In this document: one piece after another, positions 25,716 through 40,105 of the stretch
How the letters are laid out: the number at the start of each line of letters is the position of its first letter
Numbering within the stretch: position 1 is the first letter of the stretch
Assembly: GCA_001899175.1 (NCBI GenBank)
Contig: MKVH01000014.1
Location: forward strand, 8,907 to 72,906
Direction: 5' to 3'
Origin: Candidatus Kapaibacterium thiocyanatum
Lineage (GTDB): Bacteria; Bacteroidota; Ignavibacteria; Kapaibacteriales; Kapaibacteriaceae
Length of the DNA: 64,000 bases
Made by a program: the position numbers and the translations under genes
Notes under the pieces: generated by a model
The model's input: the letters and a program-made list of their open reading frames with translations, nothing else
What the model was told of the DNA's origin: nothing
Databases searched by the model: none

Positions 25716-26881
25716 TGGATGTCGTCGTGCTCGGCGCTGGCGCCGCCGGATTGTTCTGCGCCGCAGTGGCCGCTTCCAGGGGCAAGCGCGTTCTGGTTCT
25801 GGAACACAACGATCGTCCAGGAAAGAAGATCCGCATCAGTGGTGGTGGTCGTTGCAATTTCACGAACGTCGGCACGACCCATCGGAACTTCATCTCCGAC
25901 AATCCCGATTTCGCACGCTCGGCACTCACGCGATATACGCCACAGGACTTTCTCGATCTCGTCGAGCGTCATGGCATCGCATGGCATGAGAAGAAACTCG
26001 GGCAACTGTTCTGCGACGAGTCGTCGCAACGGATTATCGACATGCTCGTGGATGAATGCCGACGCAGCGACGTCGAGCTCCGTATGCGTGTCCGGGTCAA
26101 GGGTGTGAGGCGCGCCGACGACTTCATCATCGAAACGGACGGTGGTGATATCCACGCTTCGCACGTCGTCGTCGCGACCGGAGGACTGTCCATTCCCTCG
26201 CTTGGCGCGTCCGATCTAGGCTATCGCATCGCGCGGCATTTCGGTATCGCCCTGGTGACTCCGGGTCCGGCCCTCGTTCCGCTGACGTTCGACGATGCCT
26301 ATGCCGCACGATTCGGATCGTTGAGCGGCATCAGCATCGATGCCGTGGCCAATGCCGGGAACGTGCCATTCAGGGAGAACATTCTCTTCACGCACCGTGG
26401 ACTCAGCGGGCCTGCCATCCTGCAGGCATCGTCATACTGGAAGCCCGGTGAGGGATTGTCCATCGATCTTCTTCCGGATCATGGATGGAACGATCTCATA
26501 CCCGATCAACTGCGTGAGCTCCGGACACTCGGTACCGTACTCTCGACCGTCCTGCCCAGGCGATTCGTCCAGCAGTGGAACGACGAGCGATATGGGATGC
26601 ATGTGAATCGGACGCAACGTCGCGTTCTCGAAGCTGCCGTCCAGGACCTGAAGACATGGTCGGTGATTCCGAATGGTACGGAGGGATATGCGAAGGCCGA
26701 AGTCACGCGTGGTGGTATCGATACGCGTGCGCTGTCGTCGAAGACGATGGAGGTACGGTCCGTGCAGGGGCTCTACATGATCGGTGAAGTCGTCGACGTC
26801 ACCGGGTGGCTTGGGGGATACAACTTCCAGTGGGCCTGGGCATCGGCATCGGCCGCGGGATCAGCGATCGCGGAGGCCTGA
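25712..26881 (+). CDS. FAD-dependent oxidoreductase, HI0933/YhiN (aminoacetone-oxidase-like) family
   Basis: MMDVVVLGAGAAGLFCAAVAASRGKRVLVLE is a Rossmann GxGxxG motif. ...GGGRCNFTN and the C-terminal GEVVDVTGWLGGYNFQWA are characteristic of the HI0933 family. The start overlaps the upstream stop. Confidence 0.8.
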   Translation: MMDVVVLGAGAAGLFCAAVAASRGKRVLVLEHNDRPGKKIRISGGGRCNFTNVGTTHRNFISDNPDFARSALTRYTPQDFLDLVERHGIAWHEKKLGQLFCDESSQRIIDMLVDECRRSDVELRMRVRVKGVRRADDFIIETDGGDIHASHVVVATGGLSIPSLGASDLGYRIARHFGIALVTPGPALVPLTFDDAYAARFGSLSGISIDAVANAGNVPFRENILFTHRGLSGPAILQASSYWKPGEGLSIDLLPDHGWNDLIPDQLRELRTLGTVLSTVLPRRFVQQWNDERYGMHVNRTQRRVLEAAVQDLKTWSVIPNGTEGYAKAEVTRGGIDTRALSSKTMEVRSVQGLYMIGEVVDVTGWLGGYNFQWAWASASAAGSAIAEA

Positions 26882-29800
26882 CCTGCGCAACCGTCGTTCG
26901 ACGGTACGGCCGATCGCTTCGTCGAGCGAGCGTTCGAGCACGACGATGTTCGCGCGATGCCATTCATCGGTATGCGTCCACCAGTCGCCCAGTCCAGCCG
27001 CCTTGGTGAACAGCAGGCGCGTCCGTACACGTCGTATCGCAGGCATCGTGCGCAGGCACATCCATGCATAGGCCATCATCTGCGGCAGGTACGGTGCGGC
27101 CCGTTGGCCGACGTCGGCCGCAGACGCTACATGGGAGGTCTTCCAGTCCCACACTTCCACGATATCGTCGTCGACCGTCATACGAACGTCGATGACGCCT
27201 TGCAGGATCGTATCACCGAAGGCCGCGATGAGAGGCTCTTCCACGATTGCGTGGTCGAAGACCATGCCCGCGACAGGTGTGGCATGCAACACGGCCAGCA
27301 CTTCGCCGATGGCGAATGTCCGTACGTCGGGTGTGATGATCCGCGTGTCGAGCAGCGTTTCCAGTCGTGCACGTTGTTCCGCCTCGTTCATGGTCACTGC
27401 CGGTAGCATGTGTTGCAACAGGAAGTGCATGAGCGTTCCATAGGCCGGTCCGGTGCTCGAATCGATACCGGTCTCGATCGTCGATGCACTCGGTTCATCG
27501 AGCATGGCCAGTGGATCGAGGAGATCCGTCGCCGTGAGGATGTCGGGGCGATAGTCGATCGCGAGCGGTGCGGAGAGGTCGAGGACGTCGCGTTTTGTGG
27601 TGTCCGGAGGCACATAGCCGGCGGCGTCGTATCTCCCGTATCGTCCATGAATGATGAGGCCATTGGAAAAGGCCCATGCGTCCGGGCGATCCGCGATGGG
27701 AGAACGCGCATCGAGTACGGGCTGCAGGAGGGCGTTCAGTCCCTTCGGTGCCGAGAGGAATCCCCTGGAGGTGATCCCGAACGGCATACTGACGAGCAGA
27801 TGATCCCTGGCACGGGTCATTGCGACATAGAGAAGTCTCCGTTCTTCCGCACCATCACGCAGGATCGTCGCCTGACGATTGATGTCGTGCATGAAGGATG
27901 TCGGGCGCTCGACGGCGCGACCATCGCTCCGGTAGATCCTGTCGGTCAACGACAGGGTGAGTCCCATCTCGTCCGACCATATCCAGCCCGGCGGTGGTAC
28001 GCCTGCATTGGTATCGGCGACGATGACGACGGGGAATTCCAGACCCTTCGATGCATGGATGGTCATGACCTGCACGGCGTCGGGATCCGCCATGAAGGTA
28101 CGTTCCGCCTCCGTATCCCGTTCGGACGGAGGTGTCAACGCATCCACGAGATCGCGTAGCGTCGCACCGGCAGATGTACTCGTATCGTCGAGAATGTCGA
28201 GAGCCTTGTCGACGTTCGCGACGATCTGATCCCTGCGTCGATCACCCGCTATGGAAGGATACCATCGTGACGACGACAGCGCACGGCGGAGCACTTGCGT
28301 CGGCGGAATGAGGCCGATCGTCGTCCGCGCTTCATCCAGTACCTTCCATGCCGCCTGAAGGGATTCGCCTGCACTACCGTTCCTGACCATGCCGGAGAGG
28401 GCATCCCATGCCGAGACCGGGGAGCCGGCGATACGGACCAGGTCGATGTCGTCGACCATCATCATCGGAGAGCGCAGGACGCAGAACAGTGCCAGATCGT
28501 CGGCCGTATCGCTGCACCAGAGCAGCAGGTTGCGGAGGTCCGCGATTTCGGGCCGCGAGAAGAATGCCCGCCCACCGTGTGCCTGGTATGGAATGCCCAG
28601 CGTACGCAAGGCGTCGATCATGACCGGAATGGCCGTCGTACGGCGTACGAGGATGGCGATGTCACCGGGGCCGACTCGCCGCAGGCCCGACGCATCTTCC
28701 ACATGGAGCGGTATCGTGCCGTTCAGGATGTCTGCGACGCCACGGGCGCAGTTGCGCAGTTCGGCCGACAGCGCGGAGTCGTCCACGTCCCGCTCGTCGG
28801 CTTCACCGGAAAGCTGTGTGGCGATGATCGTCATGGAGCCGAGACCGTCGGGCGCGATACGGCCGCAGGCGAGGTCGGTGTAGGCTACGTCGTAGTCGCT
28901 GGCCTGACGGAAGATGTCCGCGCAGAGCGTATTCACCGCCGTCGCCAGTCCGGGAGCCATCCGGAACGACGACGTCATCTTCACCGTATGCCCGATATCG
29001 TCAGCCGCCTTGCGGAACAGGCGCACATCGGCTTCGCGGAACCCATATATACTTTGTTTATCATCACCGACGATATAAAGATTCGGAGCGCGGAGCAGGT
29101 CGACGATCTCGTACTGTAGGGGATTCGTGTCCTGGAATTCATCGACCATCAGGAAGCGGATACCTCTGCGGACATCCGCGGCGATGCGTTCGTTGCGCAG
29201 GAGGTCCCGTGCCATGAGCATCATGTCGTCGAAATCCATACCGTTCCGTTCGATCTTGGCGGCTCTGTAGTGCCTGGCCGCATCGGCGGCGAGATCGAGG
29301 ACGGTATTCATGCAGTCGATCTGCAACAGTTCCGCATCAGTATCGATATCGGCCGTGGCGAACGATGCGATACGTTCCCACGTCGACTTCGAGATCGGTG
29401 TGATATCCCGTACTTCCGGAAAGGCTGCCTGCGCGGACTTCTTGTGTCCGGTGCCACCCTTTGTATAGATGGTGCCGATGAGATGGATGGCTTCTCCGAT
29501 GATGAGAAGCGAGTCGTCGTGCGCACCGTATCTGAGTCTGTCGACGATGCCGTCGATGGTTCCGATCGTCGTTGCGGCTTCCACGATACCGTTGCCGAGC
29601 AATGCGACGAGATTCGTACGAACGGTCAGGAGCAGCGATATCACCGATGAGCGGGCTACGTAGGGCCACGTCTGCAGCCGATGTTGCAGCAGATCCGCCT
29701 CGTCGGAAAACCGGCGCCGCCATTCGTCAATGCGGCTGGCCCGTTCGGACGATGTTCCGAAGGTCATGACGAGCTGCTCGACGTTCGGAGGATCGATTTC

Positions 29801-30274
29801 ATCGAAGAGACGCAGCAGGCGCTCGCGTCGATCGTCACCGGACTGCAGCCACATCCGGACGGTCTGCATTACGGCATCCCGTTGCAGGGAGTACGTTTCA
29901 CGCGGTCCGAGTTCGCGCATGTCGGATTCGAGTCCGAGCTCGTCGGCATACTGCGTGATCAGGCCGCCACAGAAACTGTGGAAGGTACTGATACGAGCCG
30001 TGCCCATATGCTGTGCCCATTCGCGGGCCTGGATACCGATCGTCGGATCGTCCTGCAGATCGTCGAGCCGTTCGCGGATGCGACTGCGCATTTCCGCGGC
30101 GGCCTTGATCGTGAAGGTGATAGCCACGATCTCGTCGAGTTGCGCTTCGCCGGCCAGGAGAATATTGACGAAACGTTCCGTCAGCACTCTGGTCTTGCCC
30201 GAACCGGCATTGGCGAGGACCGCCAGATGGCGGTTCGTCGACAACGCTTCCTGCTGTTCGGGAGTGAACATCAT
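26861..30274 (-). CDS. UvrD/PcrA-type SF1 helicase fused to a C-terminal PD-(D/E)XK nuclease domain (AddA-like)
   Basis: 1137 aa. The N-terminus MMFTPEQQEALSTNRHLAVLANAGSGKTRVLTERF is the UvrD motif I/Walker A. Further helicase motifs follow (…VDEFQDTNPLQ…, …TIHASKGLEFPVVIV…). The C-terminus has a RecB-like nuclease signature (…DVRMTVDDDIVEVWDWKTS…). Confidence 0.85.
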   Translation of the reverse strand: MMFTPEQQEALSTNRHLAVLANAGSGKTRVLTERFVNILLAGEAQLDEIVAITFTIKAAAEMRSRIRERLDDLQDDPTIGIQAREWAQHMGTARISTFHSFCGGLITQYADELGLESDMRELGPRETYSLQRDAVMQTVRMWLQSGDDRRERLLRLFDEIDPPNVEQLVMTFGTSSERASRIDEWRRRFSDEADLLQHRLQTWPYVARSSVISLLLTVRTNLVALLGNGIVEAATTIGTIDGIVDRLRYGAHDDSLLIIGEAIHLIGTIYTKGGTGHKKSAQAAFPEVRDITPISKSTWERIASFATADIDTDAELLQIDCMNTVLDLAADAARHYRAAKIERNGMDFDDMMLMARDLLRNERIAADVRRGIRFLMVDEFQDTNPLQYEIVDLLRAPNLYIVGDDKQSIYGFREADVRLFRKAADDIGHTVKMTSSFRMAPGLATAVNTLCADIFRQASDYDVAYTDLACGRIAPDGLGSMTIIATQLSGEADERDVDDSALSAELRNCARGVADILNGTIPLHVEDASGLRRVGPGDIAILVRRTTAIPVMIDALRTLGIPYQAHGGRAFFSRPEIADLRNLLLWCSDTADDLALFCVLRSPMMMVDDIDLVRIAGSPVSAWDALSGMVRNGSAGESLQAAWKVLDEARTTIGLIPPTQVLRRALSSSRWYPSIAGDRRRDQIVANVDKALDILDDTSTSAGATLRDLVDALTPPSERDTEAERTFMADPDAVQVMTIHASKGLEFPVVIVADTNAGVPPPGWIWSDEMGLTLSLTDRIYRSDGRAVERPTSFMHDINRQATILRDGAEERRLLYVAMTRARDHLLVSMPFGITSRGFLSAPKGLNALLQPVLDARSPIADRPDAWAFSNGLIIHGRYGRYDAAGYVPPDTTKRDVLDLSAPLAIDYRPDILTATDLLDPLAMLDEPSASTIETGIDSSTGPAYGTLMHFLLQHMLPAVTMNEAEQRARLETLLDTRIITPDVRTFAIGEVLAVLHATPVAGMVFDHAIVEEPLIAAFGDTILQGVIDVRMTVDDDIVEVWDWKTSHVASAADVGQRAAPYLPQMMAYAWMCLRTMPAIRRVRTRLLFTKAAGLGDWWTHTDEWHRANIVVLERSLDEAIGRTVERRLRRSGLRDR

Positions 30275-30280
30275 GATCGG

Positions 30281-31543
30281 TCAGTCATCGGATGGTGAGG
30301 GCAGTATCAGGCAGCGACTCCATCGATCCGGACGGCACCAGCGCCGGGCTGCCGCATTGACGTCGTCGATGGTCACGGCGTTGATCCTGTCGATCGTCAC
30401 ATAGGGATCTTCGGGAACGCCGTCTTCGAACATTCCCTTGCCGAGCATCGTCATCCGTGCCGTCAGTGATTCGAGCGACATGATCTTGCCTGCACGCATC
30501 TGTTCCTTTGCCCTGCGCAGTTCGGCGGGACGCAGACCCTCGCGTGCGACCAGCGCCAGTTCTTCGTCGATGACGGCCAGTGCGCGATCACGGCGCTGCT
30601 CTTCCACACCGGCGTAGATGGCGAAGATTCCGCAGTCGACGAACAGTTGCAACTGCGAATAGACGTTGTAGGCCAGTCCCTTCCGCTCGCGCAGACGTAC
30701 GTTCAGTCGCGAGGACATTCCGTCTCCCAGTGCCGTGTTCAGCAGCATCAGGGCGAACCGTTCGGAATCGCGGTGACCGGGTACGCGCACCTGCCAGAGG
30801 ATGTGGGCCTGCTGGACCGGACGCTCCATGGTCAACGACGAGGTGGAGAGAGAAGGAGGGGCCTTACGCGACAAGGCACGGCCTCGCGGGCGCACATTCG
30901 TCAACGTGCGTTCGGCCAGTGCGATGAAGTCTTCGGGGTCGACGTTGCCCGATACCGTGACGATCAGCGACCCCGCATGATAGTGGCGGGCATGGAAGTT
31001 CCGGACATCGTCGGCCGTGATATTCGCCACGCTGTCCACCGTGCCCACGATGGGAACTCCCAGCGGGTGCCTGCCGAACATCTGTCCTTCACCGGTATCG
31101 AAGATGAATTCTTCGGCTTCGTCCTCGTATGAACGGATCTCTTCGGTGATGATCGTACGTTCCTTCTCCACATCCTTCGGATCGAAGACCGGATTCAGGA
31201 CGACGTCGGCCAACGTACGGAATACGGCGGGGAGGTGTTCGCGCAGGGTTCTGACGTAGTAGCAGGTCTCTTCCTTCGTCGTATATGCGTTGGCATAGGC
31301 TCCGACGTTCTCGAAGTCCCTGGCGATGCGCTGCGTCGTACGTCCGGGTGTGCGTCGGAACGAGGTATGTTCGACGAAATGGGCCACGCCTGCCTGGGAG
31401 CGGGGTTCGTCCCGTGTACCGGCCCGTACCCAGATGCCGACGGCACACGAATCCACGGACGGTACGCGATCGACGATGACCGGAATTCCGTTGGACAGGC
31501 GGGTCGTGAGGGGAGAATATACCGAGCGTGAGGTCGTATCCAT
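30281..31543 (-). CDS. M16-family (pitrilysin/insulinase) zinc peptidase
   Basis: HxxEH zinc motif (GVAHFVEHTSF) with downstream ...NAYT..E.T.YY. The ORF extends to 31579, but a start at Met13 (31543) fits family length and leaves room for the divergent promoter. Confidence 0.8.
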   Translation of the reverse strand: MDTTSRSVYSPLTTRLSNGIPVIVDRVPSVDSCAVGIWVRAGTRDEPRSQAGVAHFVEHTSFRRTPGRTTQRIARDFENVGAYANAYTTKEETCYYVRTLREHLPAVFRTLADVVLNPVFDPKDVEKERTIITEEIRSYEDEAEEFIFDTGEGQMFGRHPLGVPIVGTVDSVANITADDVRNFHARHYHAGSLIVTVSGNVDPEDFIALAERTLTNVRPRGRALSRKAPPSLSTSSLTMERPVQQAHILWQVRVPGHRDSERFALMLLNTALGDGMSSRLNVRLRERKGLAYNVYSQLQLFVDCGIFAIYAGVEEQRRDRALAVIDEELALVAREGLRPAELRRAKEQMRAGKIMSLESLTARMTMLGKGMFEDGVPEDPYVTIDRINAVTIDDVNAAARRWCRPDRWSRCLILPSPSDD

Positions 31544-31596
31544 ACCGTCATCATTGGAAGGAGAGCCCAAATATAGCACCGGGTAGGCAGTGACCG

Positions 31597-32859
31597 TTGG
31601 CCGTGATCCGGGATATGGCCATTTTCGTATCCGAGTATCACAAGGGGAACATGCGAGCTCTCATCCGCCTGTTGCTGTCGTTCGACAATCTGATGATCAC
31701 CATCGCCACGTGTATCGCGGCGCTGCTGCTCTATGTCGTGCCGCAGAACTTCGACTTTCTCAGCCCGCTTTCCCAGGCCCTCGGAGACGTTGATCTCACG
31801 GACATCGTGCTGTCCCAGCTCCGTGGCGACGATCATGTCGACGTCGACACGTCGATCGTTCTGGTCAACATCGGTAACGGAGACAGGGCACAGATCGCCG
31901 AACAGCTCCGGAACATCAGCCGTTTCGAGCCGGCAGCCGTAGGTCTCGATGCCTTCTTTCTCGCACAGAAGGACGTCGAGCTGGATTCTGCTCTCGCACG
32001 GGCGCTGGCCGCGACACCGAATCTCGTGATGGTGTCCAGGCTCGAAGCCGACGACGACGGAACCTCGTTCCACGACCTCGTGCGCAGCCGCCCGGAGTTC
32101 GGTCATAGTGCCTATACCGGATTTGCCAACCTCGTCACCGAAGAGGAGAAGGACGTGAAGACGTGCCGCGAGGTATCGTTCGAGGAGAAGGTCGATGGCC
32201 GGACGGAACCGTCATTCCCCATCGCCCTGGCCACGATCGTCGCCCCGGACAAGGCGCGTACCGCTCTGGCACGCGAGCAGACGACGGAGACCATCAACTT
32301 CCGTGGCAACCTCGGGAGCTTCTACCACATCGACGTCGAGCAATCGCTCGATCCGGGGGCCGACCTCTCCGTGGTCAAGGGCAAGGTCGTCCTGATGGGC
32401 TTCCTCGGAGACTACATCGGCGAGAAGAGCGTGGAGGACAAGTTCTTCACGCCCATGAACGAACAATACGTGGGACGCAGTCTGCCGGACATGTACGGTG
32501 TCGTGATCCATGCCAATGTCCTGTCCATGATCCTGTCGGGTGAATACATCGCGACGGCGACATTCGCCCAGAATCTTTTACTCGGTATGTGCGTACTCGT
32601 CCTGAACGTTTTGACGTTTACGTACATTTACACCCGGTACGAAGCCTGGTACGATACACTTGCCCTGGCCATCCAGCTCGTGGAGTCCCTCGCGATCTTC
32701 TATGGAACCATCGTTCTGTTCGATGATTACCACGTCAAGATCAATCCGACACCGGCGCTCCTGGGCGTCTTCCTCGTCGGGACGGTCCATGATCTCTATC
32801 AGGACTCGTTGAAGAAAATCATCCTTCGTACCTTCCGAAAGAAAAGGGCAGAACAATGA
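31597..32859 (+). CDS. CHASE2 domain-containing membrane protein without a recognisable output domain
   Basis: An N-terminal TM segment is followed by a periplasmic CHASE2-like region (…IVLVNIGNGDRAQIAEQLRNISRFEPAAVGLDAFF…) and then three to four C-terminal TM helices. No kinase, cyclase or GGDEF domain is present. The start may be Met19 (31651). Confidence 0.65.
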   Translation: MAVIRDMAIFVSEYHKGNMRALIRLLLSFDNLMITIATCIAALLLYVVPQNFDFLSPLSQALGDVDLTDIVLSQLRGDDHVDVDTSIVLVNIGNGDRAQIAEQLRNISRFEPAAVGLDAFFLAQKDVELDSALARALAATPNLVMVSRLEADDDGTSFHDLVRSRPEFGHSAYTGFANLVTEEEKDVKTCREVSFEEKVDGRTEPSFPIALATIVAPDKARTALAREQTTETINFRGNLGSFYHIDVEQSLDPGADLSVVKGKVVLMGFLGDYIGEKSVEDKFFTPMNEQYVGRSLPDMYGVVIHANVLSMILSGEYIATATFAQNLLLGMCVLVLNVLTFTYIYTRYEAWYDTLALAIQLVESLAIFYGTIVLFDDYHVKINPTPALLGVFLVGTVHDLYQDSLKKIILRTFRKKRAEQ

Positions 32860-33869
32860 GAGCGATACTCCTGACGATGTTCCTGTGTGCAGCCGTGACG
32901 GTGACGTCCGCGCAGGACAGATTCAAGGTTCTTGCGGTGCGGGGCAAGGTGACCTGCAATGCGGGATCGGTCCGTCTAGGTATGAAGCTTGGTCTCAAGG
33001 AACGCGTCACGGTAACGAAGGGCGGCTACGTCAGTCTCGCCCACAACAACGGCCGCACACTCGAGCTGAGCAAGGAAGGCGCATACAAGATCGCCGATCT
33101 CGACAAGGCGGCCACCAGGAAGAGCTCCAGCGTCAGCGGCAAGTTCGCCGCCTATGTCTACAACGAACTGACCGAGGTCGACGAGCCCATCGCATTCAAG
33201 GACGATCACAAGGGGCGCATGAAGACGGTCGGTGCCGTCGAGCGTGCGGATGGCGATGACGTGAGCGTCGTCGATACCATCGATGCCGCAGTAGGTGGTA
33301 TGGGCGAGGCACGACAACTGGCGGTGGTCGCATACAACGGTATGGCCAGGGGGAAGGAACTCGTCGCCATCATGCCCCGGCATACACGACTGATCGGCGA
33401 TAGCGTGACGTTCGTATGGCACAGGCTGCCGAACACGTCGAGATACAAGGTCGTCGTTCTGGACCGTGAGAACAGGGAGATATTCGGCCGTGACGTATCG
33501 GATACGTCGATGATGGTCACGACGGCGCAACTGCCGCTGACGCCTGGCCAGGTCTACTTCTGGCACGTCGAAGGTGGGGGCGGCGTCCGCTCGGACGAGT
33601 ACGCTCTCTATCGTCTGACGCCGGCGGAGCGTGCGGAGGCCGAAGCCGTGGTCCATGGGGCGAAGGACGACATGGACGACGATCAGTCGGCTATCGCACG
33701 GCTGATTCTCGCCGCTGCCTATGAAGATCAGGGATTGATGTACGACGCACATCGTGCGTATATCGACGCGGTGAATATCGCACCGGGCGTACAGAACTAC
33801 AAGCGCCTGCATGCCGAGTTCCTGCGCCGTCAGGGATTGAATTACGACGCCTATCAGGCGTATCGATAG
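32856..33869 (+). CDS. Secreted protein, unknown function; possible FecR-like N-terminus and TPR-like C-terminus
   Basis: Its ATG overlaps the CHASE2 stop (ATGA). Signal peptide MRAILLTMFLCAAVTVTSA|QD. The C-terminus is helical-repeat-like (…ARLILAAAYEDQGLMYDAHRAYIDAVNIAP…). The family assignment is tentative. Confidence 0.5.
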   Translation: MRAILLTMFLCAAVTVTSAQDRFKVLAVRGKVTCNAGSVRLGMKLGLKERVTVTKGGYVSLAHNNGRTLELSKEGAYKIADLDKAATRKSSSVSGKFAAYVYNELTEVDEPIAFKDDHKGRMKTVGAVERADGDDVSVVDTIDAAVGGMGEARQLAVVAYNGMARGKELVAIMPRHTRLIGDSVTFVWHRLPNTSRYKVVVLDRENREIFGRDVSDTSMMVTTAQLPLTPGQVYFWHVEGGGGVRSDEYALYRLTPAERAEAEAVVHGAKDDMDDDQSAIARLILAAAYEDQGLMYDAHRAYIDAVNIAPGVQNYKRLHAEFLRRQGLNYDAYQAYR

Positions 33870-33878
33870 GAGAACTAC

Positions 33879-34313
33879 ATGACGCCGGTACAACTCTGGC
33901 TCGTCGCTGCCATCGTTCTGTTCATTCTCGAAGTTATCACACCAGGCTTCGTTCTGGCAAATTTCGGCGTAGCCGCTCTCGCCGCAGGTGTTGTGGCATG
34001 GGCCGGCGGGGGAGAGATCGCCCAGGTCATGACTTTCTGTATCGTCTGCCTGCTGTCCTTCGTGACCATCCGGCCCTTCCTGCAGAAGACCATCTTCCGT
34101 GAAGGAAGGCGTGCGCGTACGGGAACGGATGCGTTGATCGGTCGCATGGCGAAAGTATCGGAAGACATTCCATCGGCACCCGATACCGGGCGCGTGCTCA
34201 TCGACGGCGACGACTGGCGTGCCATGTCGCTGAACGGTGGCGCTATCCATGCCGGGGCCGTGGTGCGTATCGTGCGGGTAGACAGTACGACCGTCATCGT
34301 CAGCGAACAATAG
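33879..34313 (+). CDS. NfeD-family membrane protein (OB-fold partner of SPFH proteins)
   Basis: 144 aa with N-terminal TM helices (WLVAAIVLFILEVITPGFVLANFGVAALAAG) and a C-terminal beta-rich domain (…GRVLIDGDDWRAMSLNGGAIHAGAVVRIVRVDSTTVIV). It lies immediately upstream of an SPFH gene. Confidence 0.75.
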   Translation: MTPVQLWLVAAIVLFILEVITPGFVLANFGVAALAAGVVAWAGGGEIAQVMTFCIVCLLSFVTIRPFLQKTIFREGRRARTGTDALIGRMAKVSEDIPSAPDTGRVLIDGDDWRAMSLNGGAIHAGAVVRIVRVDSTTVIVSEQ

Positions 34314-34337
34314 TCATTCATTCAGCAAGGTCTCGTC

Positions 34338-35309
34338 ATGGAATATGTACTCGGTGCATTGGTCCTGTTCGTCCTCGTCCTTCTCATGAAGGGTATCCGT
34401 GTCGTTCAGCAGGCGGAGACGATCATCATCGAACGTCTCGGCCGCTATCACAGGACGCTGGAAAGCGGCATCAATATCATCATCCCGTTGATCGACAAGC
34501 CGCGTCCGATCGACTGGCGCTTCGTACGCACCGATCCGTCCGGCAAGAGCCTGTACATCGCCATGCGTACGCCGAAGATCGATCTGCGCGAAACCGTCTA
34601 CGACTTTCCGCGCCAGGGTGTGATCACGCGCGACAACGTGACGATCGAGATCAATGCCTTGCTCTACTTCCAGGTCGTGGAACCGATGAAGGCCGTTTAC
34701 GAAATCTCCAATCTTCCCGATGCGATCCAGAAGCTGACGCAGACGACGCTGCGTAACGTGATCGGGGATCTCGAGCTCGACGAGACGCTGACGTCACGCG
34801 ATACCATCAACAGCAAGCTGCGGGCCATCCTCGACGAGGCATCGCACAAGTGGGGCGTGAAGGTCAATCGCGTCGAGTTGCAGGACATCATCCCTCCGCG
34901 GGACATCCAGGAAGCGATGGAGAAGCAGATGCGTGCGGAACGCGATCGTCGTGCCACCATCCTCACGGCCGAAGCCAGCAAGAAGAGCGCCGTCCTCGAG
35001 TCGGAAGGTATGCGCGAGTCGGAGATCAATCGTGCAGAAGGCGAGAAACGTTCGCAGATCCTCATTGCCGAGGGCGAAGCCGAGGCGCGGATGCGTGTTG
35101 CCAACGGAGAGGCCGAAGCCATCAAGAGCGTCGCTTCGGCCGTCGCACAGAGCAAGGGCGATCCCACGCAATACCTGATCGCGATCCGTTACATCGAGGC
35201 CATGAAGGAAATGGCGATGAACGGTAACAAGACGGTCTTCATGCCCTATGAAGCCAGCGGTGTTATGTCGTCGCTCGCCGCCATGAAGGAGATCTGGAAA
35301 CAACCATGA
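34338..35309 (+). CDS. SPFH/band-7 (stomatin/prohibitin-like) protein
   Basis: Has an N-terminal TM helix. The SPFH core reads …RGIRVVQQAETIIIERLGRYHRTL…GINIIIPLIDK…TRDNVTIEINALLYFQVV…. A C-terminal coiled coil (AEGEAEARMRVANGEAEAIK) follows. Confidence 0.9.
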   Translation: MEYVLGALVLFVLVLLMKGIRVVQQAETIIIERLGRYHRTLESGINIIIPLIDKPRPIDWRFVRTDPSGKSLYIAMRTPKIDLRETVYDFPRQGVITRDNVTIEINALLYFQVVEPMKAVYEISNLPDAIQKLTQTTLRNVIGDLELDETLTSRDTINSKLRAILDEASHKWGVKVNRVELQDIIPPRDIQEAMEKQMRAERDRRATILTAEASKKSAVLESEGMRESEINRAEGEKRSQILIAEGEAEARMRVANGEAEAIKSVASAVAQSKGDPTQYLIAIRYIEAMKEMAMNGNKTVFMPYEASGVMSSLAAMKEIWKQP

Positions 35310-35935
35310 TGACGTACCTGGTTGTCCTTTCACTGGTCGGTGCCAGTCTTCATGGAATGACGGTATCCGACCCCGATGATGTCTGGAAGGCCCTCCATCA
35401 GCGGATGAGGGCCTTCGACACGACGCTGGACTATACACAGGTACGGATGGCCTACGTCCGGTCCTCGGCATACGATCCGTACGGTGAGTTGTCGATGAGC
35501 GATATGATCATGGATGGGGTTCGTGCTCTGGCAGCCGGTAACACCCGACGCGCACGAACCCTCCTGGATTCTGCCGTAGCTGGACAACCACTGAACGTGC
35601 AGGCAAATATTGCCATGGCTACGTTTTTGGAACGTATCGGACGGAATGATACGGCTAAGGCATACAGGAGAATTGCGAATGGAGTATTGAGTGCCCTGAT
35701 GTCGTCCGGGAATGGGCGCTCTGCTTCTACGGCGATGGTGGCTATCAGTACCGGCGAAGAATATGCCTATATGACCATGTTCAACCTGACGCCGCTATTC
35801 GAGATAACACGGTACGTCGATGGCAAGCGGTATAATCTGCGTCAATGCCAAACCGCAGATGGTGACACAGTGCGAATTTGGTTCAATATCGATCTGTCGA
35901 TCGAACGTCTGTCCCGAACGACACGGGAAAGATAG
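35306..35935 (+). CDS. Hypothetical secreted protein
   Basis: Its ATG overlaps the SPFH stop (ATGA). It has an N-terminal signal-like segment. The 3' half has locally low GC (~48%). Confidence 0.5.
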   Translation: MMTYLVVLSLVGASLHGMTVSDPDDVWKALHQRMRAFDTTLDYTQVRMAYVRSSAYDPYGELSMSDMIMDGVRALAAGNTRRARTLLDSAVAGQPLNVQANIAMATFLERIGRNDTAKAYRRIANGVLSALMSSGNGRSASTAMVAISTGEEYAYMTMFNLTPLFEITRYVDGKRYNLRQCQTADGDTVRIWFNIDLSIERLSRTTRER

Positions 35936-35941
35936 TACGGA

Positions 35942-36937
35942 TCACTCCGGTATCACCGACCACGGAATCGTCCTGCCGGCCCACATCGGTACCACGGAGC
36001 CGTAACGTTCGGGAATGGTCATGGCCTCGTTCGTCAATCGTATGGTGCGTTCGGGAGGCTGGATACGATAGATGCGCTTCGCATTGTCGCTCACGAAGGC
36101 CTGCAGACGATCCAGCGCGTGATGACGTTCGAACAGCTCACCGAGCAAGGGCAGGATGATTGGGGCGGTGAAGACGCCGGCCGCGCATCCGGGACATTCC
36201 TTCTTGTCGATAGGATGCGGCGCACTGTCGCTGCCGAACATCAGTTTCGGGTGGGCCTCCAGCGCCGCTTTCAGCAAGGCGTCGCGGTCCTCGGGGCGCT
36301 TCGCGATAGGCTTGCAGAACAGATGGGGATTCATGAGGCCACCGACGACGTCATCGAGCGTGATGATGAGGTGATGCAGCGTTACCGTCGCATGAAGATT
36401 CTCGTACCGGTCGAGCAACGTGACGGCATCGGCGGTGGTGATGTGTTCCATCGTGATCCGCAGGCGCGGGAACCGTTCCGCGAGATGACGATAGACGTCG
36501 CAGAATTCACGTTCCCGATCCATCACGAAGCCGTGCGTTTCGCCGTGGACGAGCAGGGGAATGTCCTGTTCCTGCATCATGGCGAAGACGTGATCCATCT
36601 TCCCGATCTCCTGGACACCCGCTTCGCTGTTCGTCGTGGCACCGGCGGGATAGAGCTTGATGCCGATGATATGCGGCTTCGCGGCAGCGAGTTCGGCTTC
36701 CGTATAGTCGCGGAAGAACAGCGTCATGTAGGGCTCGAACGCATGCGGGGCGACGGCTGCACGGACTTCCTCCGTATACCACAGAAGGCGCTCGACGGAG
36801 TTCACCGGCGGGAGCAGGTTGGGCATGATGACGCCACCGGCGAAATGGCCGGCGGTGAGTGGAGCCACGAGACGGAGCATGTCGTCCTGCCTGAAGTGCA
36901 GGTGCATGTCGAGCGGAGAGCGGAGGGTGATGGTCAT
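35942..36937 (-). CDS. pyrC: Dihydroorotase, homodimeric type II (PyrC)
   Basis: [21 protein letters not shown]…[10 protein letters not shown]…[11 protein letters not shown]…LLVHGE…FGSDSAPHP…CPGCAAGVF aligns along its length with E. coli PyrC (RRPDDWHLHLRDG…MPNLAPPV…KLYPANATTNS…FLGTDSAPH…CGCAGCF). The upstream in-frame extension to 37267 was rejected. Confidence 0.9.
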
Positions 36938-37395
36938 GATCGTTCCGGATATGCGGGAATGTCGGGGCACATGTCGACGACGCCATCGGCATCCACATGT
37001 GCGCAGTAGGCCGTGAAGCCGTTCGTCAGAAGGACGTACGGCGCCTTCAGCGTGATGTTGTACCAGGCGGACTGGCGTAGCGTATCGGCGGTGACGGGGA
37101 CGCTCGGTGCCTTGCATTCGACGAGGAGGAAGGGCTTGATGTCGGAATCCACCCACAGGATGTCGTAGCGCATACCCTGCTTGTCGATCGTCCGTTCGAT
37201 GGAACCGTGCCCGATGGGATAGCATTTGTCGTTGATGAGCCAGTTGATGACGTGCTGTCTGACCCACTCTTCGGGTGTCAGCACGACGTACTGTTTACGG
37301 ATGACGTCGAAGATGCGCACCGTACCGTCCTCGGTCCGCACGCGAGGTGCGATCGGAGGGAAGATGAGGGACGGTAGTGCGATCAACTCAGACAT
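36934..37395 (-). CDS. Type I restriction enzyme HsdR N-terminal-domain-containing small protein
   Basis: 153 aa. …[27 protein letters not shown]…[14 protein letters not shown]… matches the HsdR_N (PF13588-like) stand-alone domain common in FCB genomes. Its stop overlaps the pyrC start by 4 bp. Confidence 0.65.
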
Positions 37396-38089
37396 GAAGA
37401 GGATCCGGCGTCAGCATGGCGAAGAGGGCTCCGATGGCTTGCTGGACGTTGTCGTGGACGTCGACGATGGACGCTTCCATCATGTAGCACGGTGCCGTGA
37501 TGATGTTGTTGCCGGCATCGATCGTGACTTCATGGACGGAATTCATATGCGTTCGTGCATCAAGTTTCTCCATGCCTGCGTTGACCTCGGCGATATCGTA
37601 GGGCGAAGCCTCTTCCGTCGTTCCGACGGTCAGATGCGGCTTGACGCCGGATCCTTCGAGAGCTTTCGCGATGACGGTAGGTCCCATGCAGAGACCGACG
37701 ACCGGTTTTCCTGCGTGGACCATGGAGACGATGAGGTTCTTCACGGCAGGCAGGATCGTCCCATCGGGACCATCGAAGGCCCATGAGGTGAGATTCTTCG
37801 CATCGCCGAATCCACCGGGAATGACGAGCGCATCGATCTCGTCGATCGTGATATCGGCAACGTTCCGGATGTCGCCGCGGGCGATGCGCGCCGCCTCCGT
37901 GAGGACATTACGCTGCTCCGGCATTTCGTTGCCGGTACGATGGTCGATGACGTGATGCTGTCGTACGTCCGGAGCCAAGCACAACGATGTCCCTCCACGT
38001 TGACCGATGGCCAGCATGGTGAAGACCGATTCCTGGATTTCCGCGCCGTCGTAGACGCCGCAGCCTGAGAGAAGTATGCCGATGGTCAT
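37388..38089 (-). CDS. elbB: Isoprenoid biosynthesis glyoxalase ElbB (DJ-1/PfpI superfamily)
   Basis: MTIGILLSGCGVYDGAEIQESVFTMLAI…LVIPGGFGDAKNL… parallels E. coli ElbB (MKKIGVILSGCGVYDGSEIHEAVLTLLAI…LIVPGGFGAAKNL). Confidence 0.85.
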   Translation of the reverse strand: MTIGILLSGCGVYDGAEIQESVFTMLAIGQRGGTSLCLAPDVRQHHVIDHRTGNEMPEQRNVLTEAARIARGDIRNVADITIDEIDALVIPGGFGDAKNLTSWAFDGPDGTILPAVKNLIVSMVHAGKPVVGLCMGPTVIAKALEGSGVKPHLTVGTTEEASPYDIAEVNAGMEKLDARTHMNSVHEVTIDAGNNIITAPCYMMEASIVDVHDNVQQAIGALFAMLTPDPLHV

Positions 38090-38143
38090 GGTATTCTGTC
38101 GATGGTGATGATGTCGTCTGTTGGAGCTGGCGGCGGGCAGGAC

Positions 38144-38416
38144 TCATCGTCGTCCGGTCCGCATCATATCCTTCGTCTTCTTCGTGAACATGTAGACGAT
38201 GAAGAGAAAGGCCACGCCGTTGGCCCAGATGATACTGACGTCGGAACGGATGATGCCGTAGAGCAGCCAGAGAAGGCTGCCACAGAGCATCAGGCCGAGC
38301 ATGCCGATGCTGAGCTGATCGACGGCCTGCGTACGCCATACCTTGAAGGCCTGTGGCGCCAGTGCGAAGGTGGAGCAACTGCCGGCCATCAGACCGAGAA
38401 TCGTAACGTCATCCAT
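38144..38416 (-). CDS. SemiSWEET / PQ-loop (MtN3-like) small sugar transporter
   Basis: 90 aa with three TM helices and a PQ-like motif (…FALAPQAFKVWRTQ…). Confidence 0.65.
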   Translation of the reverse strand: MDDVTILGLMAGSCSTFALAPQAFKVWRTQAVDQLSIGMLGLMLCGSLLWLLYGIIRSDVSIIWANGVAFLFIVYMFTKKTKDMMRTGRR

Positions 38417-39188
38417 GGAACGTCAATCGATGGTAGGCAGCCGTGATACGTTCGGGATGATTGCTCACCACGGCCTGGATGCCGTACGACAGTGCCTTGC
38501 GGAGATCGTCTTCCGTGTTGACGGTATAGACGCCGACAGGAAGTCCGTGAGCACGGGCATCGTTGGCGCGCGCGTGGGTGAGCTCCTGAAGCGAGCAGCC
38601 GTAGGCATCGGCTCCGCAAGCGCGTACCACTTCGCTGGGCATGCGCTTGTCGCCGGGAACGTTGATGGCGACGGTATGGAGCGTATTGTCGATCGACTTC
38701 ACGAGAGCCAACGTGCGATGATCGAACGAGGCGAAGGCCATGAACGGTCCGATGCCGACCCGATGGACGAGTGCGACGAGGTCGTGGATATCCTGAACGG
38801 TCGATGGGTCGTCGTCCTGCATCGGCTTCAATTCGATGTTGAGATAGGCGCGCCCCTCGAGTGCGGACAACGCTTCGCTCAGCAGGGGCACACGTTCACC
38901 CGTGAACAGCGGCGAGAACCAGGAACCTGCGTCGAGCTTGCGGAGGTCGGCGAGCGGTGTACGGCGTACGTAGCCATGACCGTTCGTGGTGCGGCCGAGT
39001 ATGGCGTCGTGGAATACGACGAGTTCGTGATCGGCCGTCGTCTGCACATCGAGTTCTACCATACGTGCGCCACCTTCCACGGCCATACGTAGTGCGGCGA
39101 GGGTATTCTCCGGTGCCATGCCGGAAGCGCCGCGGTGGGCGACGACGAAGAATGGTGTGGACCGGACGAATCGTGCGAGTGGAATCAC
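38409..39188 (-). CDS. Glycerophosphodiester phosphodiesterase (GDPD family)
   Basis: …FFVVAHRGASGMAPENTLAALRMAVEGGARMVELDVQTTADHELVVFHD… is the GDPD catalytic signature. The Met-initiated ORF (to 39413) would overlap fmt by >100 bp. A GTG at 39188-39186 overlaps the fmt stop as GTGA and gives a family-typical ~260-aa protein. The start is uncertain. Confidence 0.7.
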   Translation of the reverse strand: MIPLARFVRSTPFFVVAHRGASGMAPENTLAALRMAVEGGARMVELDVQTTADHELVVFHDAILGRTTNGHGYVRRTPLADLRKLDAGSWFSPLFTGERVPLLSEALSALEGRAYLNIELKPMQDDDPSTVQDIHDLVALVHRVGIGPFMAFASFDHRTLALVKSIDNTLHTVAINVPGDKRMPSEVVRACGADAYGCSLQELTHARANDARAHGLPVGVYTVNTEDDLRKALSYGIQAVVSNHPERITAAYHRLTFHG

Positions 39189-40105
39189 GCAAATGTTCCT
39201 TCGACGGGGCCGCGATAGCCACGAAGCATGTCGGTCGTCTGCATGCGCTTCTTGCCGGGAGTCTGGATCTCGCTCAACAGCAATGCACCATCGGCACATC
39301 CTGCGAGCAGGCCATACGGCGTCATGCGAAACGTTCCCATCGGACATGTTTCGTCTGCGGGTGCGGCGTGATAGATCTTGAGTACTTCGCCGTTCCAGTG
39401 CGTCCATGCGCATGGTACGGGCGAAAGGCCATGGATGAAGTTACGCACATCGTGCCGTTGTTTCGTCCAGTCGATCCGGCTCGTCTCGCGGAATACCTTC
39501 GGCGCTGGCGAGGCCAGCGATTCCAGTTGCAGGATGGGAGCCGTCGTGCCGTCCAGGAGCATCCGCACGGTCTGTACGGCACAGTCCGCGGCCAGCGGCA
39601 TCAGACGGGCATAGAGCTCGCCTGCCGTCATGCCGTCGGGAACGTCGCAGCGTTCCTGCAGGAGGATGTTGCCGGTATCCACGACGTCGTTGAGTAAAAA
39701 GCTGGTAACACCCGATTCCCGGTCGCCGTTGATGATGGCATGATTGATCGGTGCCGCACCACGGTAACGGGGCAGAAGGGAGGCATGGACGTTGAAGGCG
39801 CCGAGGCGGGCCATCGTATAGATGGTGCGGGGAAGGATACGGAATGCGATCACGCACAGGATATCGGGTTCGAGGGCGGCCAGTGTCTCGGCGAAGGCGG
39901 GGTCCTTCAGCGACGCGGGCTGAAGAATCGTGTCGATGCCGAGATCCAGGGCTGCCCGCTTGACCTCGGACGGCTGTACGTTGAGTCCGCGTCCTCGTGC
40001 CTTGTCGGGAATGGTGACGACTGCGCGGACACCGAATCCGGTATGCAGGGCCTGCAGTGCGGGTACGGCGAATTCAGGCGTTCCCATGAAGATGATCGAG
40101 GACAT
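39185..40105 (-). CDS. fmt: Methionyl-tRNA formyltransferase
   Basis: MSSIIFMGTPEFAVPALQAL…DILCVIAFRILP…FNVHASLLPRYRGAAPINHAII… are classic Fmt motifs. 306 aa. Confidence 0.9.
   Translation of the reverse strand: MSSIIFMGTPEFAVPALQALHTGFGVRAVVTIPDKARGRGLNVQPSEVKRAALDLGIDTILQPASLKDPAFAETLAALEPDILCVIAFRILPRTIYTMARLGAFNVHASLLPRYRGAAPINHAIINGDRESGVTSFLLNDVVDTGNILLQERCDVPDGMTAGELYARLMPLAADCAVQTVRMLLDGTTAPILQLESLASPAPKVFRETSRIDWTKQRHDVRNFIHGLSPVPCAWTHWNGEVLKIYHAAPADETCPMGTFRMTPYGLLAGCADGALLLSEIQTPGKKRMQTTDMLRGYRGPVEGTFA

Follow-up and report, generated by a model that had tools for sequence, protein, structure and literature searches.

We analyzed a stretch of 64,000 nucleotides from Candidatus Kapaibacterium thiocyanatum (contig MKVH01000014.1, positions 8,907 to 72,906 of the forward strand); the whole of this stretch is referred to below as the window, and positions are counted from its first letter. 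The subject of this work is a run of five genes on the + strand, here called g1 to g5, which begins with a gene for a CHASE2 membrane protein and continues with genes for a secreted protein, a short NfeD protein, an SPFH-family (stomatin/prohibitin/flotillin/HflK/C) protein and a DUF4919 protein. A first-pass annotation of this DNA had proposed that the five form an operon in which the CHASE2 protein, having no output domain of its own, passes its signal to a partner. The open reading frame (ORF) listing of the window contains five + strand ORFs in 31597-35935, with coordinates identical to those first read:

31597-32859, + strand: g1, 420 aa from a TTG start as listed; CHASE2 membrane protein without an output domain
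32856-33869, + strand: g2, 337 aa; secreted MtxA-like partner of g1
33879-34313, + strand: g3, 144 aa; short NfeD protein, partner of the stomatin gene
34338-35309, + strand: g4, 323 aa; SPFH protein of the QmcA/p-stomatin type
35306-35935, + strand: g5, 209 aa; DUF4919/TPR-like protein; hydrophobic leader; translational coupling to g4
31544-31650: probable divergent promoter region between an M16 peptidase gene (- strand) and g1, judged from the ORF layout and from homologue starts

The junction sequences confirm that the genes are chained by ATGA overlaps or by gaps of 25 bp or less, as had been claimed. In particular, g1 and g2 share a 4-bp ATGA overlap, as do g4 and g5, the g2/g3 spacing is 9 bp, with GGAG ahead of the ATG, and the g3/g4 spacing is 24 bp. 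The only non-coding stretch with room for a promoter of all five genes is 31544-31650, in which a scan that covers no Bacteroidota-type promoters found no sigma-70-like match. Because no terminator-like or sigma-70-like site above shuffle expectation was found inside the cluster (Bacteroidota-type promoters again lying outside the scope of the scan), we infer that the five genes are very likely co-transcribed in this genome. The gene boundaries first given stand, with the exception of the start of g1. Homologues of g1 align only from residue ~20-24 of the TTG-initiated ORF, for which reason we favor the ATG at 31651 (yielding a protein of 402 aa) as the probable true start, rather than the TTG at 31597. 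When the five proteins were searched against Pfam, the CHASE2, NfeD and Band_7 assignments were all above their cut-offs, and NCBIfam models added nothing further above cut-offs. The best matches assign the window to Kapabacteria, within the Ignavibacteria/Bacteroidota (FCB) group.

The CHASE2 protein and its secreted partner

The g1 protein matches the Pfam CHASE2 family (PF05226) with 82.8 bits against a cut-off of 26.3 (E 3.9e-23), and neither Pfam nor NCBIfam finds a second domain in it. In an AlphaFold2 (AF2) model with a predicted local distance difference test score (pLDDT) of 87 and a predicted template-modelling score of 0.85, helices 11-33, 305-329, 331-360 and 367-401 surround an alpha/beta domain. 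(Note that the structural statements made here about g1 and g2 rest on AF2 models and are predictions.) The modelled topology, with one N-terminal transmembrane (TM) helix, an extracytoplasmic domain of ~270 aa and three further TM helices, is that of a CHASE2 protein, and hydropathy and positive-inside analysis agrees with it. The chain stops ~20 residues past the last TM helix, which leaves no room for a cytoplasmic output domain. The parts of g1 and g2 to which we refer below are the following:

nt ~31879-32598, + strand: CHASE2 Pfam match of g1; periplasmic alpha/beta domain after TM1
nt ~32563-32853, + strand: three C-terminal TM helices of g1, then a basic cytoplasmic tail of ~20 aa
nt 32856-32912, + strand: signal-peptide-like leader of g2
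nt 32913-33305, + strand: N-terminal beta-domain and conserved linker motif of g2 (residues 20-150); CHASE2-associated module
nt 33363-33620, + strand: Ig/FN3-like domain of g2 (residues ~170-255) in the AF2 model
nt 33621-33866, + strand: two-TPR helical domain of g2 (residues 256-337) in the AF2 model; five-helix, TPR-like

The absence of an output domain is a family trait of the relatives of g1 and not a truncation. All 109 homologue clusters are CHASE2-only and all contain PF05226, and the complete relatives among the ~130 that were fetched are about 380-474 aa long with the same architecture. The first-pass description of a CHASE2 protein with TM helices and no output domain is thus borne out. 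Comparison with a close relative gave ratios of nonsynonymous to synonymous substitution rates (dN/dS) of 0.10 for g1 and 0.07 for g2. The family contains the invariant motif PDMYGVVIHAN, and its invariant polar residues are D51, R79 and, within this motif, D280, H287 and N289 (alignment A3; numbering from the ATG at 31651); these residues may point to a defined binding or catalytic site. A Foldseek comparison of the g1 model with the PDB gave no meaningful match, the best being subtilisin (E 0.055, template-modelling (TM) score 0.19-0.26, root-mean-square deviation ~15 Å). Because the model is a confident one and yet lacks a meaningful PDB match, we rejected the idea that CHASE2 is a pseudo-caspase or has another known fold.

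To place g1 and g2 in context, we compiled 130 loci that contain a relative of g1. Reference genomes supplied 39 of these, exact-protein look-ups about a dozen and metagenomes 80, the last being the best-scoring 80 of 542 confirmed loci found via CHASE2 motifs and alignment. De-replication at 60% or greater CHASE2-protein identity yielded 61 clusters, which are not to be read as independent evolutionary events. Conservation in them is nested at three levels, that of g2 beside CHASE2 being the deepest, followed by that of the NfeD-SPFH pair and then that of g5. Across these loci, which come from Bacteroidota, Ignavibacteria and Kapabacteria, g2 adjoins an output-less CHASE2 gene in 58 of the 61 clusters. 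Among the reference-genome loci with a g2 gene, 34 of 35 place it downstream and on the strand of the CHASE2 gene, at a median distance of 33 bp; by tblastn this amounts to 34 of all 39 loci in the set. Moreover, the two proteins occur as natural fusions, P0171 (755 aa, Kapabacteria metagenome-assembled genome (MAG), MBL7998400.1) and P0293 (740 aa), each of which consists of a complete CHASE2 protein, the g2 leader as a fifth TM helix and the full g2 module. P0171 and P0293 were seen in 2 and 3 members, respectively, on independent contigs, the longest of 988 kb, and because they recur in this way they are not frameshift artefacts. Such a topology would bring g2 back to the periplasm, the side on which g2 and the CHASE2 domain of g1 are both predicted to lie. 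The proposal that the co-translated secreted g2 is a partner of g1 is therefore supported by the adjacency, by the two independent fusion clusters and by the likeness to MtxA described below.

Several other candidates for members or partners of the pair were set aside. The gene downstream of CHASE2 in Raineyaceae loci is not a divergent g2 (hhalign probability 0.8%), and these loci were therefore counted as lacking g2. Neighboring genes for MeaB, succinyl-CoA ligase and a SPOUT methyltransferase were rejected as partners, being lineage-specific housekeeping synteny. No second copy of g1 or g2 was found in the 64-kb window. Elsewhere, the CHASE2-only gene occurs twice in tandem in five loci (L107, L116, L117, L122 and L130) and the g2 gene in 2-3 tandem copies in five others (L021, L035, L037, L110 and L132); these duplications suggest diversification of the sensor/adaptor pair. 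Note that one locus, L001 (JAGFIZ010000051.1), comes from a MAG labelled 'Bradyrhizobiaceae bacterium' but is collinear with the Kapabacteria loci and encodes proteins 49-78% identical to those of the window, so that the contig or bin is probably misassigned.

The g2 protein begins with a clear, signal-peptide-like leader (MRAILLTMFLCAAVTVTSA/QD). Its AF2 model (pLDDT 81.8) consists of a small beta-domain, a helical linker, a sandwich resembling immunoglobulin (Ig) or fibronectin type III (FN3) domains and a TPR-like domain, and the TPR character is also detected by sequence profile; these C-terminal profile matches agree with the TPR-like nature ascribed to g2 at first reading. Residues 107-137 (nt 33174-33266, consensus ELTEVxEPIAFxDxRRxNMRTTGSVERAxGD) show some of the strongest conservation in the g2 family, although they were modelled with a pLDDT below 50; they are a candidate for a segment that becomes folded only in contact with a partner, for instance the CHASE2 domain. 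The best Foldseek match to the g2 model is 4z29, the C-terminal domain of MtxA, with both the Ig-like and the TPR parts aligned (TM score 0.64-0.68 on the target; E 5e-8 and 6.6e-8 for 4z29_A and 4z29_B, 177-179 aligned columns, root-mean-square deviation 3.9-4.4 Å).

MtxA is a secreted protein of magnetotactic bacteria, and a conserved CHASE2 adenylate-cyclase gene follows mtxA (PMC4439547). Like g2, MtxA of Magnetospirillum gryphiswaldense (MGR_0208, PDB 4z29) is secreted, has an N-terminal region followed by an Ig-like domain on a two-TPR domain, and adjoins a CHASE2 gene. The two systems differ in that the CHASE2 neighbor of MtxA has a cyclase output whereas g1 has none, and in that mtxA lies upstream of its CHASE2 gene whereas g2 lies downstream. 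The likeness covers the C-terminal domain, MtxA residues 1-141 not being contained in 4z29. At the level of sequence, a profile of the g2 family searched against PDB sequences did not retrieve 4z29 at E<=10, and the identity in the structural alignment is 14%; common descent of g2 and MtxA is unproven because no sequence homology is detectable. In other words, g2 shares with MtxA an Ig-like domain packed on a two-TPR domain, secretion and an adjoining CHASE2 gene, but not detectable sequence homology, and on the basis of the model the description that suits it best is that of an MtxA-like CHASE2 accessory protein.

We found no support for the first-pass assignment of g2 to the FecR family. Neither g2 at E<=1 nor any of 40 diverse family members (0/40) matches the Pfam FecR model (PF04773), the hhalign probability for the g2 family against E. 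coli FecR is 0.25%, and jackhmmer with E. coli FecR detected no FecR homologues in any fetched locus; FecR identity is thus rejected at the sequence and profile level. In an exhaustive profile search for the g2 family, clusters formed at 50% identity numbered 394 with a threshold of E<=1e-30 and 1,344 when this was relaxed to E<=1e-10, and no Pfam domain was found in the g2-family clusters.

CHASE2 receptors that come with accessory proteins of the periplasm or outer membrane are known from several other bacteria. The Burkholderia BiofilmReg operon encodes a response regulator, a LysM-FecR protein and a CHASE2 kinase, and a CHASE2 cyclase cluster of Campylobacterota includes a FecR outer-membrane protein, a TPR protein and a phosphodiesterase. 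In Sinorhizobium (S.) meliloti, where NsrA goes with CyaD1/CyaD2/CyaK, the signal is a protein and is relayed via an outer-membrane partner. As at the locus studied here, CHASE2 in these three systems is found with envelope proteins built from beta-rich and TPR modules. Their receptors, however, have a cytoplasmic kinase or cyclase output and their accessory proteins match Pfam FecR, whereas g1 has no output domain and g2 has no FecR match.

Secreted caspase-like proteases beside the pair

Outside Kapabacteria, the recurrent neighbors of the pair, as judged by Pfam searches of the neighboring proteins, are secreted cysteine proteases. All have signal peptides, and they are of the following types:

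TPR-CHAT proteins, 840-1650 aa
C14 with TPR, adjoining the pair in loci L029-L035 (Chitinophagaceae)
WD40 with C14
CsgG-like domain with Glucodextran_B and C14
papain-like C1 peptidase, then a Glucodextran_B-C14 protein

A C14 or CHAT protease is encoded no more than four genes from the pair in 18 of the 61 clusters, and a C14, CHAT or C1 protease no more than two genes away in 17 of the 61. The protease gene may lie upstream or downstream in the same orientation, divergent or convergent, and at least six different arrangements occur in all. The caspase His and Cys motifs are intact in 22 of 23 C14 neighbors. Moreover, at three loci (L065:8314-10281, L071:8286-10232 and L070:2551-3597), which represent two of the clusters, the gene that directly follows the output-less CHASE2 gene encodes a fusion of the g2 N-terminal module (positions 7-146 of the g2 hidden Markov model, HMM) with Peptidase_C14 and an outer-membrane beta-barrel, again with intact His and Cys motifs. 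In these fusions C14 stands where g2 has its Ig-TPR half, which shows that the CHASE2-associated part of g2 is its N-terminal half and that a protease can be swapped in for the remainder. The beta-barrel of the fusions is a further likeness to the outer-membrane relay of S. meliloti.

Fusions of caspase and CHASE2 domains have been published, namely a metacaspase-CHASE2 protein of Trichodesmium erythraeum (PMC3501461) and EACC2-caspase-CHASE2 proteins (PMC8195603). In these, CHASE2 is tied to a caspase fold, just as C14 or CHAT proteases flank the pair in 18 of the 61 clusters. The published caspases are, however, predicted to be cytoplasmic and N-terminal to TM1, whereas the proteases found here either stand alone and carry signal peptides or are joined to the g2 module and not to CHASE2. 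Among the papers searched, none names CHASE2 together with CHAT. In the 64-kb window itself no such protease was found by tblastn with 16 CHAT/C14 proteins or by HMMs for CHAT, C14 and papain-like C1. Note that an extended cassette recurs in L089, L090, L096, L101 and L103, and partly in L080, L085, L106, L109 and L111. After the CHASE2-only gene and g2 it encodes three proteins with signal peptides, in this order: a papain-like C1 peptidase of ~455 aa, a protein of 166 aa and a Glucodextran_B+C14 protein of ~488 aa.

The NfeD-stomatin pair, g5 and the nature of the operon

The identities of g3 and g4 given in the first-pass annotation hold up. The g3 protein matches Pfam NfeD (PF01957) with 52.9 bits against a cut-off of 29.1, with membrane and C-terminal domains only, and consists of three hydrophobic segments, a basic stretch and a C-terminal OB-fold (oligonucleotide/oligosaccharide-binding fold), with no protease domain; its PDB matches are 3wwv, the 'stomatin operon partner protein' (2.8e-5), and 3cp0. 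The g4 protein matches Band_7 with 128.1 bits, and its PDB matches are QmcA (8z5g, 2.8e-65), the PH stomatin (3bk6, 2e-37) and HflK (4e-15). The NCBIfam HflK, HflC and FloT models all scored under their cut-offs, and g4, which has the N-terminal TM helix of its class, is closest to stomatin/QmcA and not to HflK/C or flotillin. Five Lys and Arg residues follow the third TM segment of g3, and positive charges lie only on the C-terminal side of the single N-terminal TM helix of g4. By the positive-inside rule, the C-terminal domain of g3 and the SPFH domain of g4 are both predicted to be cytoplasmic; E. coli QmcA faces the cytoplasm as well (PMC10434171). Operons such as E. coli qmcA-ybbJ and Pyrococcus PH1511-PH1510 ('STOPP') match g3 and g4 directly, in adjacency and in predicted cytoplasmic orientation. 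The order of qmcA-ybbJ is the reverse of the nfeD-then-SPFH order of g3-g4, and PH1510 has a ClpP-like protease domain whereas g3 is a short form without such a domain by Pfam; the g3-g4 pair is otherwise ordinary.

Pairs of NfeD and SPFH genes stand alone throughout bacteria and archaea (PMC10434171). In our sample such a pair lies within four genes of CHASE2-g2 in 8 of 47 clusters, all of them from the Kapabacteria clade with g1 proteins at least 46% identical to that of the window. The pair is absent from this position in the nearest outgroups (g1 identity 44, 40 and 38%) and in all Bacteroidota loci. The clade is also collinear for UvrD and M16 upstream and for pyrC, HSDR_N, PQ-loop, GDPD, fmt and MiaE downstream, a neighborhood of ~15 kb, and the phylogenetic depth of the CHASE2-SPFH adjacency is no greater than that of this surrounding housekeeping synteny. 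The adjacency is most likely a juxtaposition at the level of this clade and not a system. The first-pass annotation had named the NfeD-SPFH pair as a candidate to receive the signal of the CHASE2 protein; its restriction to one clade with collinear flanks, its absence from the outgroups and the opposite predicted compartments of the proteins speak against a specific signalling partnership. That the arrangement is undescribed, as the annotation supposed, is in keeping with our literature searches, which found no described CHASE2-SPFH link.

The last gene of the run, g5, matches Pfam DUF4919 (PF16266) with 46.3 bits against a cut-off of 29 and has weak TPR matches besides. Its homologues, which are confined to a sub-clade, fall into five clusters, all with PF16266 and all in the same slot overlapping the stop codon of the stomatin gene; other members of the Kapabacteria clade have a different gene or none in this slot. 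The g5 protein, called secreted at first reading, does have a hydrophobic leader, but one with no basic n-region, so that secretion is less certain. In three relatives of the locus (L051, L052 and L053) the g1-g4 and pyrC products are 92-100% identical to those of the window and the g5 products 47-57%. DNA identity falls from ~0.90 to 0.41-0.67 inside g5 and recovers directly after its stop codon. The synonymous divergence (dS) of g5 is 1.4-2.3, as compared with 0.30-0.54 in its neighbors, and its dN/dS is 0.18-0.31. The hypervariable core is the following:

~35440-35935, + strand: hypervariable core of g5, the first ~58 codons being less diverged

All this is in keeping with replacement of alleles, or with a long-lived polymorphism, at one fixed slot, and the g5 variants would appear, from these divergence figures, to be old, still-constrained alleles exchanged at a fixed locus rather than products of simple decay.

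The interpretation that we favor, with moderate confidence, is that the locus is a composite operon: three modules, transcribed together in one lineage of Kapabacteria, that do not make up one system. Module A (g1 and g2) would be an ancient two-gene cassette comprising a CHASE2 protein that in no case carries a cytoplasmic output domain and a periplasmic MtxA-like protein, module B (g3 and g4) a canonical NfeD-stomatin membrane-scaffold pair of the YbbJ/QmcA type, and module C (g5) a hypervariable DUF4919 protein that is specific to the lineage and added on behind the stomatin gene. The adjacency of A and B would have arisen once in the Kapabacteria clade and persisted with the rest of the collinear neighborhood. 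The first-pass interpretation of the locus is, overall, partly supported.

Within module A, the N-terminal module of g2 may dock on the CHASE2 domain, probably via residues 107-137, and the Ig-TPR face of g2 may recruit a client. Since g1 lacks an output in the cytoplasm, g1 and g2 most likely act within the envelope only. For roughly one lineage in three this client would probably be a secreted C14/CHAT protease, encoded next to the pair or replacing the Ig-TPR part of g2 by fusion. A broader proposal, to which we give distinctly less than an even chance, is that the CHASE2-only protein and its MtxA-like partner make up an envelope module, widespread but undescribed, in bacteria of the FCB group (Bacteroidota, Ignavibacteria and Kapabacteria), which controls secreted caspase-like proteases with no second messenger and would amount to an extracytoplasmic 'caspase platform'. 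CHASE2 would here be the membrane receptor and the g2 N-terminal module the adaptor, with control exerted by anchoring, activation or targeting of a protease in the periplasm or at the outer membrane; lineages without an adjacent protease, this one among them, would use a client encoded elsewhere.

Several points weigh against the composite operon or against the link to proteases. In Kapabacteria the four genes g1-g4 are co-directional, with g2-g3 gaps of 2-31 bp in loci with gene calls, down to 46-57% g1 identity. Such packing would also be expected of an operon-level functional link, and co-transcription alone can couple genes. The loci were sampled via CHASE2 motifs, and hence the sample holds no contexts found from the SPFH side. 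As for the proteases, 41-43 of the 61 clusters, including this window, lack a nearby one; the association is a raw neighbor count with no genome-wide background rate; the loci were scored by tblastn and HMMs, with the ORFs in the tally being longest-ORF calls; and the C14, CHAT and C1 HMMs were seeded from neighbors found earlier, a sample of which was confirmed with Pfam.

An alternative is that the locus is one functional unit, in which CHASE2 and g2 as a co-sensor signal laterally to the NfeD-SPFH scaffold, for example by recruitment to or release from a stomatin cage, so as to alter the organization or turnover of membrane proteins. SPFH scaffolds do organize membrane signalling proteins, as B. 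subtilis flotillins do for the KinC kinase, g1 needs some partner since it has no output, and the co-directional packing (overlaps and gaps of no more than 24 bp) is kept in all sampled members of the clade (8 clusters, g1 46-57% identical). In addition, the whole five-gene order is not unique to this genome, since it recurs in L052. Yet the link is absent in 39 of the 47 clusters, including the nearest outgroups named above, and since unrelated housekeeping neighbors are equally conserved where the link is present, the synteny holds no specific signal for a single unit. By prediction, NfeD and SPFH lie mostly in the cytoplasm and g1 and g2 mostly in the periplasm, NfeD-SPFH pairs occur by themselves throughout bacteria and archaea (PMC10434171), and no support was found in the literature; we regard a single unit as quite improbable. 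A different possibility is that g1 and g2 are the input module of a split receptor, whose output is a cytoplasmic or membrane protein encoded elsewhere in the genome, for example a kinase, a cyclase or a full-length CHASE2 receptor with which g1 makes hetero-oligomers via its TM bundle, in which case the pair would not be an envelope-confined protease adaptor. All characterized CHASE2 proteins are transducers with cyclase, kinase or GGDEF outputs, accessory proteins of the MtxA and FecR types work with such receptors, and g1 still has, confidently modelled, the whole three-TM bundle through which the signal normally reaches the output. The tandem CHASE2-only duplicates in the five loci listed above would fit hetero-oligomerization, and in a single case (L071:2979-6575) a 1199-aa Reg_prop/Y_Y_Y sensor with a guanylate/adenylate cyclase domain is encoded two genes upstream of the CHASE2-only gene. 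Against this, no output-domain gene is recurrent near the pair in the 61 clusters whereas secreted cysteine proteases are, the cytoplasmic tail of g1 has just ~20 residues, and the g2-C14 fusions with an outer-membrane barrel put the effector outside the cytoplasm. A split receptor thus seems to us unlikely.

The idea that g1 is the remnant of a decayed CHASE2 receptor, and that the cluster brings unrelated genes together by chance, draws on the fact that truncation can yield output-less sensors and that g2 and g5 have no annotated function. This idea is effectively refuted by conservation and purifying selection: more than 100 homologue clusters share a common architecture of ~400-450 aa with invariant motifs, the dN/dS values of g1 and g2 are those given above, the partnership with g2 is conserved, and fusions of the two exist.

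The theme of CHASE2 plus a periplasmic accessory protein is already known; what is new here is the pair of an output-less CHASE2 protein and an MtxA-like protein, and its repeated association with secreted caspase-like proteases. For most CHASE2 receptors no ligand or mechanism has been established, and no solved structure resembles CHASE2. The output-less family, its constant partner and the protease association suggest a mode of CHASE2 action in the envelope that needs no signalling in the cytoplasm. The N-terminal module of g2 is a likely CHASE2-binding element, and as such a testable handle on CHASE2 binding, and the findings give a context to at least 394 g2-family clusters (50% identity, E<=1e-30) that have no Pfam annotation. 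The locus also serves as a caution that tight operon structure and clade-level synteny alone do not show a functional system.

Defence-system models (PADLOC) gave just two matches to the five proteins, both marginal (E 0.005 and 0.002, 14-16 bits), and identity as a known anti-phage defence system was rejected on these grounds. The genes that flank the cluster are ordinary housekeeping genes, collinear throughout the Kapabacteria clade:

26861-31579, - strand: upstream flank, with a UvrD/AddA-like helicase (1137 aa) and the M16 peptidase
35942-40105, - strand: downstream flank, with a pyrC-like amidohydrolase and HSDR_N_2, PQ-loop, GDPD and fmt genes

Note that the pyrC ORF as listed (441 aa, GTG start) is probably over-extended, its homologues being ~332 aa long.

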